NCBI RefSeq assembly: GCF_029227855.1 | Contig: NZ_CP074357.1 | Reading direction: 5' to 3' (one strand) | DNA: 64,000 bases | Origin: Escherichia coli | GTDB taxonomy: Bacteria; Pseudomonadota; Gammaproteobacteria; Enterobacterales; Enterobacteriaceae | In this document: piece by piece, positions 43,101 to 49,100 of the stretch | How positions within the stretch are numbered: position 1 is the first letter of the stretch | Layout of the letters: the number at the start of each line of letters is the position of its first letter | Made by a program: the position numbers

Positions 43101-46100
43101 TTCTTCCATTATCTCTTCAGGGGCTCGATAACCTTTTGGGGGAAGAATTCCGGACGGAATGGATGGACGTTTTTGAGAACGAGTTTGAAAACACGACCGT
43201 TTCGGTTCGCATCCTGTACGCCGAACGTATTCAACAAGAGGAAGTCCTATGAGCAACCAACCCACCAGCCTGCCAGAAGAAGATATTGAGTTTGTTATGG
43301 ATACCTTTCAGAGGAGCATGGGTAAATCCAAGCCTGTCAGGGATACTCAACTAGAGGGTGAGAAACCGCAAAGTAAAGAGTCCGCAAACTCAACTGAAAA
43401 CCCCGGTTATGAAGAATTCTATTAATTACGCTCATGATATCCTGGTGCAGTTATTTAGAATGATATTTGAGGGATGGGGGACATTGTGATTAAAAGGCGT
43501 AACATTCGACGATCAGTTTATGGATTGCTTATTGTTCTTATCGCCGGAAATGTGTGGTTAGGCCGTAAGCGTCGTCTGAGTACCGTCTGGTCCCGAATCC
43601 AGGATCCTGTAACTTAAGCACCCACTTATTTTGCAGGTGGACACCTCATGCGCGCTAAAGAAAGACTTCCCCGGAAACACTATTCCCCTGAATTCAAAAT
43701 GGAACTGGTCAGGCTGGCTCTTGAAGAAGAAGGCAGTATTGCCGCACTGGCCCGGAAACATGACGTCAATGATAACCTGCTCTTTAAATGGATAAGGCTC
43801 TGGCAGCGTGAAGGGCGGGTCTGTCGGCCCCGAAAAAACTCATCGTCGCTTCCTGCCCTGATACCCGTGCAGCTTCAGGCGGGCTCTTCTCTCCCAACCT
43901 TCGAACTACCATCCTGCTCTCCTCCCGCTACCTGCCACATAAAATGTCGGGGAGGAGAAATAACACTGACTCATCCCTCTGCTGAACTCATGAGCACTGT
44001 CCTGCGCGAACTGATGCGGGGGCCTGTATGATAAATCTTCCCGCAGGCACAAAAATCTGGCTGGTTGCCGGTATCACCGATATGCGCAACGGCTTCAATG
44101 GCCTCGCCGCAAAGGTGCAGACCGCGCTGAAAGATGACCCGATGTCCGGCCACGTCTTCATCTTCCGGGGACGCAGCGGCAGTCAGGTAAAACTGCTCTG
44201 GTCCACCGGCGATGGTCTGTGCCTGCTGACAAAGCGACTGGAACGTGGTCGCTTCGCCTGGCCCTCAGCCCGCGATGGCAAAGTGTTCCTGACGCCGGCG
44301 CAACTGGCGATGCTGATGGAAGGTATCGACTGGCGACAGCCAAAGCGGTTACTGACATCCCTGACCATGTTGTAGCGCTCTTTATCCTGGTTGTCGCAGA
44401 ATAAGCCTGGTAAAATACAGGCTTATGAACGACACCTCTTCTGACGACATCCTTCTGCTGAAACAGCGCCTGGCCGAACAGGAAGCGTTGATCCACGCCC
44501 TGCAGGAAAAGCTGAGCAACCGGGAACGCGAAATAGACCATCTGCAGGCGCAACTGGATAAGCTGCGCCGGATGAACTTCGGCAGTCGTTCCGAAAAGGT
44601 ATCCCGCCGTATCGCGCAAATGGAAGCTGACCTGAACCTGCTGCAGCAGGAAAGCGATACGCTGACCGGCCGGGTGGATGACCCGGCAGTGCAGCGCCCG
44701 CTGCGTCAGACCCGCACCCGCAAACCGTTCCCTGAGTCACTCCCACGGGATGAGAAGCGGCTGCTGCCGACTGAGCCGTGTTGCCCGGAGTGCGGTGGTT
44801 CGCTGAGTTACCTGGGTGAGGATGCCGCCGAACAGCTGGAGCTGATGCGCAGCGCCTTCCGGGTTATCCGGACAGTCCGTGAAAAGCATGCCTGCCGTCG
44901 GTGCGATCGCATCGTTCAGGCCCCGGCTCCTTCGCGCCCCATCGAACGGGGGATCGCCGGACCGGGGCTGCTGGCCCGAGTGCTGACCTCAAAGTATGCA
45001 GAGCACACACCGCTGTATCGCCAGTCGGAGATCTATGCCCGCCAGGGTGTAGTGTTGAGTCGTTCTGTACTGTCGGGCTGGGTGGATGCGTGTTGTCGTC
45101 TGCTGGCACCGCTGGATGAAGCCCTTCAGCACTATGTCCTGACCGACGGCAAACTCCATGCTGACGATACGCCTGTCCCGGTGCTGTTGCCAGGCAATAA
45201 GAAGACGAAGACCGGGCGCTTATGGACGTACGTTCGAGACGACCGCAACGCCGGATCAGCGCTGGCCCCCGCAGTGTGGTTCGCTTACAGCCCGGACAGA
45301 AAAGGTATCCACCCTCAGACCCATCTTGCAGGCTTCAGTGGCGTACTGCAGGCTGATGCCTACGCCGGGTTCAACGAGCTCTACCGCGACGGCCATATAA
45401 AGGAAGCCGCGTGCTGGGCCCATGCCCGCCGAAAAATCCACGATGTTCACGTCCGTACCCCGTCAGCCCTGACGGAGGAGGCGCTGAAACGGATCGGCGA
45501 GCTGTATGCCATCGAGTCGGAGCTCAGAGGTAAAAGAGCAGAGGAACGGCAGGCAGTCCGGCACCAAAAAGTGCTGCCGCTGCTGGCGTCACTGGAGGGG
45601 TGGCTGCGGGAGAAACAGAAAACCCTCTCAAGGCACTCAGAACTGGCGAAGGCGTTCGGGTATGCGCTGAACCAGTGGCCGGCGCTGACCCGCTATGCAG
45701 AAGATGGCTGGGTGGAGGTGGATAATAACATTGCCGAAAACGCCCTACGACTGGTCAGTCTGGGGAGAAAAAACTGGCTGTTCTTCGGCTCGGATCATGG
45801 TGGTGAGCGCGGTGCGTCACTGTACAGTCTTATCGGGACGTGCAAATTAAACGGCGTGGATCCGGAACGCTATCTGCATCATGTACTTGATGTCATCGCC
45901 GACTGGCCTGTGAACCGGGTGGGTGCTCTGCTCCCGTGGCGGGTTACTCTGCCTGCCTGACCAGCTTCACTTCGTCAATACGGTTCTCACTGCACGCTTA
46001 CGTTAGGCCTTAGAGCTGATAAAATTCATAAAGTGCGTTATCAGGATTTCTGGTCACCGGCAACTGTGATTAAAGTAACTGTAATGCCTTCAACGAATGA

Positions 46101-49100
46101 AACCCAGCTCAGTGGTAAAATCCCTAAATCGGTAAGAGTTTCAAACAATTATGTTGAGTACTCGTTACCGGGCACACTCTCGGCCAAGACCATTTACCGA
46201 AGCGTGTTAGAAGATGAGATGGGCTTTGTTGAATAAATAAGATTTCGTGCGAACGACCCTGGAGCTGGCTGGATTTTCAGGCAATACGCACGCTTTCTGG
46301 CATCCCAGCCTTTGTCATCCTGTTCAACGCACGCACCATGGCCATAGCTTCCGCTACCTGACCATCGTAGTCACGCAGCGTCAGTGAATCTCCCAACAAC
46401 TGCTTCATTCTGTACATTGCCGTTTCCGCTATCGAGCGACGGTTATATTCCGTTGTCCATTTCCACCGTGCATTGCTTCCGCTCAGCCGCTGATTAGCAA
46501 CGGCACGGTTGCGGTCTGCGTACTCACCGGGCCAGTAACCTGCTCCTTTTCGGGGAGGAATAAGCGCGCTGATTTTTTTGCGGCGCAGTTCATCGTGACA
46601 GAGCCGGGTATCGTAAGCCCCGTCTGCCGCGGCTGCCCTGATTTTTCTGTGAGTCTGCCGGATAAGGCCCGGGAAGGCTTCTGAGTCCGTCACATTGTTC
46701 AGCGACAGGTCTGCACAGATGATTTCATGTGTGTTGCTGTCAACTGCCAGATGCAACTTTCGCCATATACGACGGCGTTCTTTGCCGTGTTTTTTGACTT
46801 TCCATTCGCCTTCACCAAAGACCTTCAGCCCGGTGGAATCAATCACCAGATGCGCGATTTCACCCCGGGTGAACGTTTTGAAACTGACATTAACCGACTT
46901 TGCGCGCTTGCTGACACTGGTGTAATCCGGGCAGCGCAACGGAACATTCATCAGTGTAAAAATGGAATCAATAAAACCCTGTGCAGCCCGCAGGGTCAAC
47001 CTGAACACGCGTTTAATGACCAGAACGGTGGTGATGGCGAGATCAGAATAGCGCTGAGGTCTTCCCCGTGATGAAGGCGTTGTCGACTCATACCAGGCCT
47101 GAATAGCTTCATCATCCAGCCAGAAAGTTATGGAGCCACGGTTGATGAGGGCTTTATTGTAGGTGGGCCAGTTGGTGATTTTGAACTTTTGCTTTGCCAC
47201 GGAACGGTCTGCGTTGTCGGGAAGATGCGTGATCTGATCCTTCAACTCAGCAAAAGTTCGATTTATTCAACAAAGCCAAGTCTATCTTTAAAAAAGCTAA
47301 AACAAAAATATAGAGTTAATTAGATTGGTGGCTCAGGTTTATAAAACCTCTCACTAGTGAGGTTTATTTTTTATTTTTGGCTGAGATTAACAGCGTTTTC
47401 CATAAATGTATCAATAACAACCGTAAGAGACTGGCTGGTACCATGGCTATACTCAGGCCAGGGTAAAAAAGGATATGAAGAATACGCCATCAACATGATA
47501 CTGGTTGGGCAACGCCAGTCCGTTGGAACACCTTTACTGTAATGGACAATCATAGCCGGGCGACTACAATCAATATCTCCAGCGTTTTTATCGAGTACGA
47601 AAGTAGCCAGAACGCCGGTGTCCTTCTGGGATACGAAAACAAGGCTGTCAGTAAAAATAAAGGCCATTAAGGAAGAGGCCAGGAAAGCGCCAGTAAATAA
47701 GGACTTCTTCTCTTTCCAAACGCGTCGAGCATATAACCCCATTAGCGCTACCGCTGAAACCATTCCGTACCACTGAGCACCCAAAGAAAAATCTGTTACT
47801 GTTTTAGATGTCATACTTTCATTAATAGTAATCATTGCGACAATGAATGGTGATGCGATTCCAAGTGTTGCTAGGACTATCAGCGATATTTCAGACCGGT
47901 TTTCTTTAGCGGATCCTTTACTTATTGCAGACATTGCTCTGAACATAACGAATGTACTGTTGAGCATCAGAAAACAGCATAAGAGCATGTATAACATTGG
48001 GTTTCCTCAACCTAGAAGTGATGGTTTCCCTGTTATTTTACATAAATTTGACTCAACAGATGCTTTTAAAATCTCGCTTCCTTGAATTTACAAACATATC
48101 AGCACAATTGGCAAACATAAAGGAGCAGCGTCTATCAAAAGTTACTTTTATGATTGGTTGAATACTCATTTTGAAGGCTAAAATCCAAAAAAGTGGATAC
48201 AAAAAGTTACTTTTGCGTCATCCAGATGCACTGCCGCCATTTTGCATTCTGTACGTTGGTTGCTTTCTCACTTGATGTCTCTTTTAACAGGCAAATTATC
48301 ACTTTATCCGACCGGACCTTGTAGGCTGAATCCGTAGAATAAGGCTATAACCTATTCCCGGAGCATCATATGCGTAAAACTCTAATTGGCTGCATGGTTG
48401 CAACTGCCCTTGCTACTGTATCTTCGGCACATGCTCAGGTATTTAGCTACTCATTTACAGATACCAATAAGGCTGTTCGGAATATCAAACCTGCAACACA
48501 AACATATCTTAATCCCGCTGGTGTTTTGACTCTGAACTTGATATCGGGTCTTGATCGGTACGAGCGAGTGACGGTCACACGAGACAGCGATAAAAAGGTT
48601 ATGTATTCCTCCGTCTCGACCAAAACGAGCGTTGCAGATCGTATCGTTGCTGCCGATGGAACAGAATACTATGGAAAGGATATGGTTCTACCGGCGCTCG
48701 GAGAAGGGACCTTTACTGTAGTCAATGAAACTCTGGATATTCGCCAGACTGTAGTGAGCACATCTACTTATCATTTCATCGTTGATACAACTCCTCCACG
48801 CTATAAGAGTATTTATCCGAGTCAAAACGCAGGTTACGACATGGTACTTTCTGGGCCACTTTGGGAGTTGGGCCGAGGCGGTAGTGGCCAGTTTTCTATA
48901 TTTGCAGACGGTATTGAGGATGCTAGTGGAATTGACAAGATCCGTCTTGTCATTAAACGAAGTAATGGTTCTGTGGTCTCCGACAATAACCTGAGTTATG
49001 ACACAGCCAATAAACGTGCGTTCTATCCGTGGATTAAAGATATGAACACCCAGGCTGGCATGCCCTCAAGTGATCTTGATGAAGAATTCACCTTCAATTT

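Follow-up and report, generated by a model that had tools for sequence, protein, structure and literature searches.

Adjacent IS66-family and IS903-like insertion sequences, the latter in place of 385 bp, in the backbone of an IncHI2 plasmid of Escherichia coli

The window, a 64,000-nucleotide stretch of an Escherichia coli sequence record, belongs to the backbone of a conjugative IncHI2 plasmid from the pAPEC-O1-R-like lineage. Apart from an IS100 insertion, it is 99.9-100% identical to pR18.0877_278k, which is typed as IncHI2A / MOBH / MPF_F and has the repHI2 replication gene and the IncHI-type transfer genes (trh/htd) annotated; the assignment of the window follows from this near-identity. 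An IS66-family element and an IS903-like element lie side by side within this backbone (Table 1), separated by exactly 220 bp (46002-46221). PGAP names their products at the family level only, that of the IS903-like element being "IS5 family transposase". The paired arrangement is found in at least 88 sequenced plasmids of PLSDB, and pAPEC-O1-R also carries its IS66-side junction.

The tnpA and tnpB ORFs of the IS66-family element overlap by 4 nt and are both located upstream of tnpC. The element displays the features of its family, namely an IS66-type DDE transposase (TnpC) accompanied by tnpA and tnpB, an 8-bp duplication and imperfect terminal repeats. The inverted-repeat arms (43564-43586 and 45980-46002) are 23 nt long, 78% complementary and read GTAAGCG at both ends; imperfect terminal repeats of approximately 20-30 bp starting with GTAA are the typical terminus of IS66-family elements. 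Copies at least 99% identical are present in 334 PLSDB records, and an independent copy in E. cloacae CP035634 is flanked by the 8-bp duplication AAGTAAAG. In the window the sequence GTTAGGCC abuts both sides, a flank match of 8/8 with a chance probability of about 1.5e-5, and in pSTM6-275 the two flanks are contiguous with one GTTAGGCC, representing the empty site. The reconstructed empty site is found in one place in 976 PLSDB records (60 of the 60 matches listed consist of two pieces spanning 1985 bp). This single GTTAGGCC at an uninterrupted site in more than 970 related IncHI2 plasmids proves that the IS66-family element arrived by simple transposition, as a preliminary description of this DNA had proposed from the perfect duplication. 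With lesser probability, the element may favour this short stretch as a target, having struck there twice independently within 186 bp.

The IS903-like element has the organization of the IS903 group, in which a single DDE_Tnp_1-type transposase fills approximately 1.06 kb between 18-bp terminal repeats (GGCTTTGTTGAATAAATC). These repeats had been described as intact, but they match at 17 of 18 positions (GGCTTTGTTGAATAAATA versus ...AAATC). The same difference is present in a 96%-identical relative from Klebsiella (1056-bp Klebsiella subgroup), and the imperfect match is therefore a trait of the subgroup. Elements at least 99% identical to that of the window occur in 93 PLSDB records and 122 E. 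coli records.

Table 1. Insertion sequences, duplications and backbone gene fragments in the window.
Feature	Position	Strand	Remarks
5' fragment (nt 1-91) of 153-aa hypothetical gene (WP_000502497 in pSTM6-275)	43474..43564	+	Identical to L002 3575-3665; cut by IS66 element
Left copy of 8-bp target-site duplication GTTAGGCC	43557..43564	.	Abuts IS66 element; single in empty site
IS66-family insertion sequence, 2437 bp	43565..46001	+	Imperfect terminal inverted repeats starting GTAAGCG; missing from empty-site plasmids
tnpA, 127 aa, IS66 accessory protein	43648..44031	+	Pfam HTH_Tnp_1 2.9e-13; NCBIfam IS66_ISRel24_TnpA 75.7 bits (cutoff 74)
tnpB, 115 aa, IS66 accessory protein	44028..44375	+	Pfam TnpB_IS66 1.7e-38; NCBIfam IS66_TnpB
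tnpC, 511 aa, IS66-family DDE transposase	44425..45960	+	Pfam DDE_Tnp_IS66 1.8e-105, LZ_Tnp_IS66, zf-IS66, DDE_Tnp_IS66_C; NCBIfam transpos_IS66 467.7 bits (cutoff 180)
Right copy of 8-bp duplication GTTAGGCC	46002..46009	.	Abuts IS66 element
Middle fragment (nt 92-303) of the same 153-aa gene, stranded between both insertion sequences	46010..46221	+	Identical to L002 3666-3877
IS903-group (IS5-family) insertion sequence, 1056 bp	46222..47277	-	No target-site duplication; sits in place of 385 bp of backbone
Transposase-distal repeat of IS903-like element	46222-46239		17/18 match, final C to A
Transposase ORF, 322 aa, WP_000654806, intact	46277..47245	-	Pfam DDE_Tnp_1_5, DDE_Tnp_1; NCBIfam transpos_IS5_2 353.9 bits
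Transposase-proximal repeat of IS903-like element	47260-47277		Exact GGCTTTGTTGAATAAATC
Last 36 nt of 93-aa hypothetical gene (WP_000535422)	47278..47313	+	Identical to end of L002 4017-4298
ISKpn26 (IS5 family), 1196 bp, no duplication	10234..11429	.	Replaces ~1226 bp: 3' end of parM and a 639-nt gene
IS100, 1954 bp, 5-bp duplication ATTGG	32063..34016	.	Missing from near-identical pR18.0877_278k
ISKpn18 (IS3 family), 1303 bp, 3-bp duplication CAG	54728..56030	.	Just past repHI2 iteron-like array

The IS903-like element replaces exactly 385 bp of the backbone as it is found in pSTM6-275 (locus L002, 3878-4262), and neither junction of the replacement has shared bases. The missing stretch takes in the final 159 nt of the 153-aa gene, which the IS66-family element had entered at codon 31, together with the first 246 nt of the 93-aa gene. 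Neither of the two broken genes has a Pfam or NCBIfam match, and two hypothetical genes without known function are thus destroyed. The 9-mers flanking the IS903-like element are GATGAGATG and AAGTCTATC, and no hidden 9-bp repeat emerged when each end was moved by as much as 15 bp, the best match being 6/9. The absence of the duplication noted earlier consequently stands on realignment of the ends, and it is accounted for by the loss of the adjacent 385 bp. The pre-insertion sequence is reconstructed by pSTM6-275, as a comparison with related plasmids had been expected to do. The preliminary description had suggested either an adjacent deletion or IS-mediated recombination; the exact replacement relative to the ancestral backbone bears out the adjacent loss of DNA, and the choice between the two routes rests on inference. 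A deletion junction without the IS903-like element was not found in PLSDB.

Identical (100%) copies of the IS903-like element are flanked by perfect 9-bp duplications on an IncX3 plasmid (TCTTTAACC), in the chromosome of E. coli ZY22049 (AGAGGCAGA) and on pAPEC-O1-R (TTGAAGAGA), and the strains with the TCTTTAACC and AGAGGCAGA copies also hold an IncHI2-sized record with an identical element. The WP_000654806 protein is also encoded by copies with 9-bp duplications. The duplication typical of the IS903 group is therefore lacking at the window copy and present at three identical copies elsewhere, which indicates that its absence is a property of the locus and not of the element. Judged from these copies, the element is competent and works normally.

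In three Serratia IncHI2 plasmids the IS66-family element occupies exactly this site and the 385 bp are still in place, and no IS903-like junction with an empty IS66 site was present among the PLSDB matches listed. On these grounds the IS66-family element came before the IS903-like element. Neither junction of the IS903-like element is accompanied by a 9-bp duplication in any of the matches listed from 72,556 plasmids, or in 5,426 E. coli genomes. The PLSDB searches for junctions of the IS903-like element without IS66 and for intermediates extended to 5000 records each, among which full-length matches would be expected as top-scoring entries, and in the searches for intermediates some matches ran approximately 18-20 bases past the ends of the element.

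Three further insertion sequences are located in the window, and the states reported for them earlier (an IS5 element without a duplication, IS100 and an IS3-family element with duplications) agree with the present assignments. For ISKpn26, an intermediate exists in 24 plasmids that share its left junction, retain a TTAG duplication and have the neighbouring genes intact; by this comparison its deletion is demonstrably two-step and serves as a precedent within the same lineage. Since ISKpn26 also has an adjacent deletion of approximately 1.2 kb, five insertions and two deletions can be read from the window, so that the earlier count of at least five independent IS events was correct and slightly understated. 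Duplications are retained by the IS66-family element, IS100 and ISKpn18, none of which belongs to the IS5 family, whereas the two IS5-family elements each border a deletion.

The likeliest route, and probably the one taken, is a normal insertion of the IS903-like element followed by an intramolecular transposition that deleted the 385 bp. The element would first have inserted with a 9-bp duplication, and its transposase would then have directed an intramolecular transposition of the replicative type, with a target 385 bp away. The DNA in between and one of the two duplication copies would have been deleted in the process, so that one flank would be original and the other new. The expected intermediate would have the junctions ...AACAAAGCC + GATGAGATGCTCACTTTG and ...TTATTCGGTAAGTCTATC + GGCTTTGTTG. 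Because no intermediate was found, the two-step route is inferred and not observed. Adjacent deletions as well as cointegrates are documented products of IS903 (PMC11708052, PMC12670165). Of the two flanks, the one beside the IS66-family element is probably original, as in the sister plasmid pAPEC-O1-R another 1453 bp are gone from the transposase-proximal side of this IS903-like copy. This plasmid differs by one base at the junction taken as original, and its IS903-like copy bounds an inversion of approximately 25 kb with a second, inverted copy. The few duplications compared gave no clear pattern of target preference by which the original flank could be named. The final structure looks alike under the two-step route, recombination between direct copies and one-step insertion with deletion.

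That a duplication was made and later decayed by point mutation, or that the ends were misplaced, with no DNA lost in either case, is refuted: the bare absence of a repeat agrees with such a history and nothing further does, the ancestral backbone has the 385 bp missing exactly between the ends, no 9-mer up to 15 bp from the ends matches at more than 6/9 positions, and the ends are fixed by alignment with three other copies. Homologous recombination between two IS903-like copies that had inserted independently, in the same orientation, at a distance of 385 bp and with a duplication at both sites would have removed one copy and the 385 bp and yielded a structure identical to that seen. Missing duplications are known to arise by recombination between copies (PMC11708052), and pAPEC-O1-R illustrates that the lineage can hold three copies; this route is nevertheless unlikely, as two insertions within 385 bp of a plasmid of approximately 250 kb or more are required, and among the matches listed no plasmid has a duplication at either junction. 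In the lineage records listed, moreover, the element is present as a single copy at a single place, so that no partner for recombination is evident. Similarly improbable is a one-step insertion with deletion, through entry into a double-strand break or an attack of the two ends on positions 385 bp apart, in which no duplication ever formed. This would fit the lack of an intermediate among the matches listed from the collections searched and of an IS903-free deletion in PLSDB, and in E. coli C a comparable event has been put forward for an element of the IS903 subgroup within the IS5 family (PMC11708052), although the mechanism is itself only a hypothesis. A missing intermediate is weak evidence, however, for an event that occurred once and before the early 1990s, when pAPEC-O1-R, which already has the arrangement, was isolated (bioRxiv 10.1101/334409). 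The normal 9-bp duplications made by the identical element elsewhere and the two-step history of the ISKpn26 deletion also argue against a single step. If true, the one-step reading would provide a natural, decades-old case of "insertion with deletion" (PMC11708052).

The paired arrangement is known biology in already-sequenced plasmids and represents ordinary plasmid wear, and the papers on IncHI2 and pAPEC-O1-R make no mention of IS66 or IS903 in the backbone. Its importance hardly goes beyond bookkeeping and lies in its use as a stable lineage marker: the pAPEC-O1-R-like IncHI2 lineage, a vehicle of resistance genes in Salmonella, E. coli and Enterobacter, is marked by the junction pair (IS66 with GTTAGGCC, IS903-like with the 385-bp loss). 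Combined with the states of ISKpn26, ISKpn18 and IS100, it gives an ordered series of events usable for sub-lineage typing. The locus also illustrates how comparison with relatives can account for an insertion sequence that lacks its duplication.

The nearest known group for the window is that of the pAPEC-O1-R-like IncHI2 plasmids (pAPEC-O1-R, pSH111_227 and pR18.0877_278k). Both pAPEC-O1-R and pSH111_227 differ from the window in having ISKpn26 with its duplication retained and the parM region intact, and pAPEC-O1-R differs further by the additional loss beside the IS903-like element and by its inversion. The IS66-family element resembles its family in the three ORFs with family Pfam and NCBIfam domains, the 8-bp duplication, the GTAAGCG repeats and a length of 2.4 kb. 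Its nearest annotated relatives are ISEc8, ISEc22 and ISKpn24 of the three-ORF type (tnpA, tnpB, tnpC), to which it is only 82-84% identical at the nucleotide level in the tnpB-tnpC part only; no alignment with these relatives is obtained at the tnpA end, and the element is a distinct member of the family. Elements are regarded as the same under the ISfinder rule at about 95% nucleotide or 98% amino-acid identity. The IS903-like element shares with IS903/IS903B a single DDE transposase, a length near 1057 bp, the terminal repeat GGCTTTGTTGAATAAATC and a 9-bp duplication at normal insertions. It differs from IS903B in its length (1056 versus 1057 bp) and the 17/18 repeat match, and it is 92.2% identical in nucleotides and 96.6% in amino acids to one PGAP-annotated IS903B copy. 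Identity as IS903B itself is rejected for want of near-identity. The name IS903 used previously thus holds for the group and is looser than the sequence warrants, and the element is best classed as a member of the IS903 group and not as IS903B proper.

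Dozens of IncHI2 conjugative plasmids, from hosts that include Salmonella, E. coli and Enterobacter, match window positions 43000 to 48000 at 100% identity. The S. Goldcoast plasmid pR18.0877_278k (typed as IncHI2A/MOBH) is co-linear with the entire window at 99.9–100% identity, the sole exception being one additional 1954-bp element in the window. On this basis, the IS66-family and IS903-like elements are placed in a plasmid backbone, with a DUF4942-domain gene on one side and the repHI2 replication region on the other. The window also contains a tandem array located between a traC-like gene and parA, the length of which is not the same as in the IncHI2 plasmid pSTM6-275, and an iteron-like array downstream of repHI2, with ISKpn18 inserted approximately 300 bp past its end.

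Features of the window and related copies of the IS903-like element
Feature	Location	Target duplication	Details
ISKpn26	10234-11429	none	replaces ~1226 bp
Tandem array	17827-21325		14 copies of 249-bp unit (73% matches)
IS100	32063-34016	5 bp, ATTGG	empty site in pR18.0877_278k
IS66-family element	43565-46001	GTTAGGCC	2437 bp; imperfect terminal repeats starting GTAAGCG; ORFs of 127, 115 and 511 aa: TnpA (HTH_Tnp_1), TnpB_IS66, IS66 DDE transposase
IS903-like element	46222-47277	none	1056 bp; transposase on minus strand
Iteron-like array	53511-54420		81-bp repeat, ~11 copies
ISKpn18	54728-56030	3 bp, CAG	empty site in pSTM6-275
100%-identical IS903-like copy	IncX3 plasmid pMTY18530-4 (L012)	TCTTTAACC	interrupts ddp1
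100%-identical IS903-like copy	E. coli ZY22049 chromosome (L013)	AGAGGCAGA	between acrE and acrS
100%-identical IS903-like copy	Tn7/sil region of pAPEC-O1-R	TTGAAGAGA	
Inverted IS903-like copies, pAPEC-O1-R	L017 7518-8573; L018 32067-33122		ancestral target L019

The DDE transposase of the IS66-family element also matched zinc-finger, leucine-zipper and C-terminal domains. The octamer GTTAGGCC directly adjoins both ends of the element, and the insertion splits a hypothetical 153-aa gene between its nucleotides 91 and 92. Both flanks were joined through a single GTTAGGCC and searched against PLSDB as an empty-site query; 976 records hold the region in one place (two pieces, 1985 bp, in 60 of the 60 rows listed), and pSTM6-275 contains the exact join of the two flanks. 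The 8-bp duplication and simple transposition reported in the preliminary description are thereby upheld, and the element reads as a textbook simple insertion. It is found with at least 99% identity in 334 plasmid records and is only 82–84% identical to copies annotated as ISEc8, ISEc22 or ISKpn24, in the tnpB–tnpC part only; it is a distinct member of the IS66 family. The same element (99.8% identical) is located 186 bp upstream of this site in Enterobacter cloacae CP035634.1 (L006 1864–4300), with its own duplication AAGTAAAG, equivalent to window 43371–43378, and represents an independent insertion event. Two insertions within 186 bp of a plasmid of approximately 250 kb or larger might point to a preference for targets in this region.

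The ends of the IS903-like element were set by alignment to three other copies, and its 322-aa transposase contains DDE_Tnp_1_5 and DDE_Tnp_1 domains. Exactly 220 bp separate this element from the IS66 element, as first described. The flanking 9-mers are GATGAGATG and AAGTCTATC, and realignment of the ends within 15 bp, proposed earlier as the test for a hidden 9-bp repeat, gave 6 of 9 matches at best. The reported absence of a 9-bp duplication therefore stands, but the intact 18-bp repeats do not, and the name IS903 is too loose: the terminal repeats match at 17 of 18 positions, and the element is 92.2% identical in nucleotides and 96.6% in amino acids to a copy annotated as IS903B, making "IS903-group element" the safe name. 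The mismatched base is also present in a 96%-identical 1056-bp Klebsiella relative, so it is a subgroup trait rather than damage. Two of three IS903-group copies chosen just for sequence comparison (K. pneumoniae IncR plasmid, L009; S. marcescens pCAV1492-73, L010) likewise have no 9-bp duplication, and such copies of this group seem common in plasmids.

In the ancestral backbone (pSTM6-275 locus, L002 3878–4262), the sequences flanking the IS903-like element lie exactly 385 bp apart, with zero shared bases at either junction. The element replaces exactly these 385 bp, which bears out the adjacent deletion originally suggested for the missing duplication. The loss covers the final 159 nt of the IS66-broken gene together with nucleotides 1–246 of a gene encoding 93 aa. 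Since identical copies with perfect 9-bp duplications are found in three other places, the element itself is not defective and the missing duplication is a property of the window locus. The strains with the IncX3 and ZY22049 chromosomal copies each also have an IncHI2-sized record bearing the identical element; both insertions are probably recent, and the chromosomal copy, situated between acrE and its repressor gene acrS, might alter efflux-pump expression.

The favoured route, which we infer, is normal insertion of the IS903-like element followed by intramolecular transposition that would have removed the 385 bp. It is favoured because the lineage records listed hold a single copy and because IS903 is documented to produce adjacent deletions, as well as cointegrates (PMC11708052, PMC12670165); the single copy also argues against recombination between two IS903-like copies as the cause of the loss. 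The intermediate sought, in which one or other junction would show a 9-bp duplication and the 385 bp would remain, was found neither among the PLSDB matches listed nor in the 5,426 complete genomes of E. coli searched, and the deletion junction was never found in PLSDB without the element. These negatives are meaningful, as an identically designed search clearly recovered the ISKpn26 intermediate. Insertion and deletion in one step, as proposed in PMC11708052, is a less likely alternative.

In pAPEC-O1-R, the IS903-like copy adjoining the IS66 element has lost another 1453 bp on the transposase-proximal side, where its flank corresponds to window position 48731. This weakly suggests that the original flank is the one facing the IS66 element, with deletions extending from the opposite end of the IS903-like copy. 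This copy and an inverted third copy bracket an inversion of approximately 25 kb that includes repHI2, with a target duplication of 8 bp (CGTCGGCA) rather than 9, and the copy has one extra base at the IS66-side junction relative to the window. The 8-bp duplication and extra base could be a sequencing error in the 2006 record or a real oddity.

The left flank of ISKpn26 ends in TTAG, in agreement with the IS5 target rule. The predicted intermediate, with TTAG duplicated and the neighbouring genes intact, was found in 24 plasmids, pAPEC-O1-R and pSH111_227 among them; the deletion beside ISKpn26 was a second step. With one third of parM (its 3' part) and the next 639-nt gene deleted, the window sub-lineage is probably without its actin-type (ParM) partition module and dependent on ParA/ParB. 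The duplications claimed for IS100 and the IS3-family element (ISKpn18), and their absence at the IS5 element (ISKpn26), agree with the table; all five of the at least five independent IS events proposed are confirmed, and the two deletions bring these to seven.

An IS903 junction with an empty IS66 site was not present among the PLSDB matches listed, and three Serratia marcescens IncHI2 plasmids carry the IS66 element at precisely this site while retaining the 385 bp; the IS66 element arrived before the IS903-like element. A consistent order is a bare backbone of the pSTM6-275 type, the IS66 element, the IS903-like element together with the loss of 385 bp, ISKpn26, the deletion beside it and IS100; ISKpn18 is placed provisionally alongside the ISKpn26-deletion step. 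Apart from small errors in naming and repeat length, the preliminary description was right in observation and interpretation. All of these events are standard insertion-sequence behaviour, and the arrangement is already present in public plasmids including pAPEC-O1-R, the host of which was an early-1990s isolate (bioRxiv 10.1101/334409).
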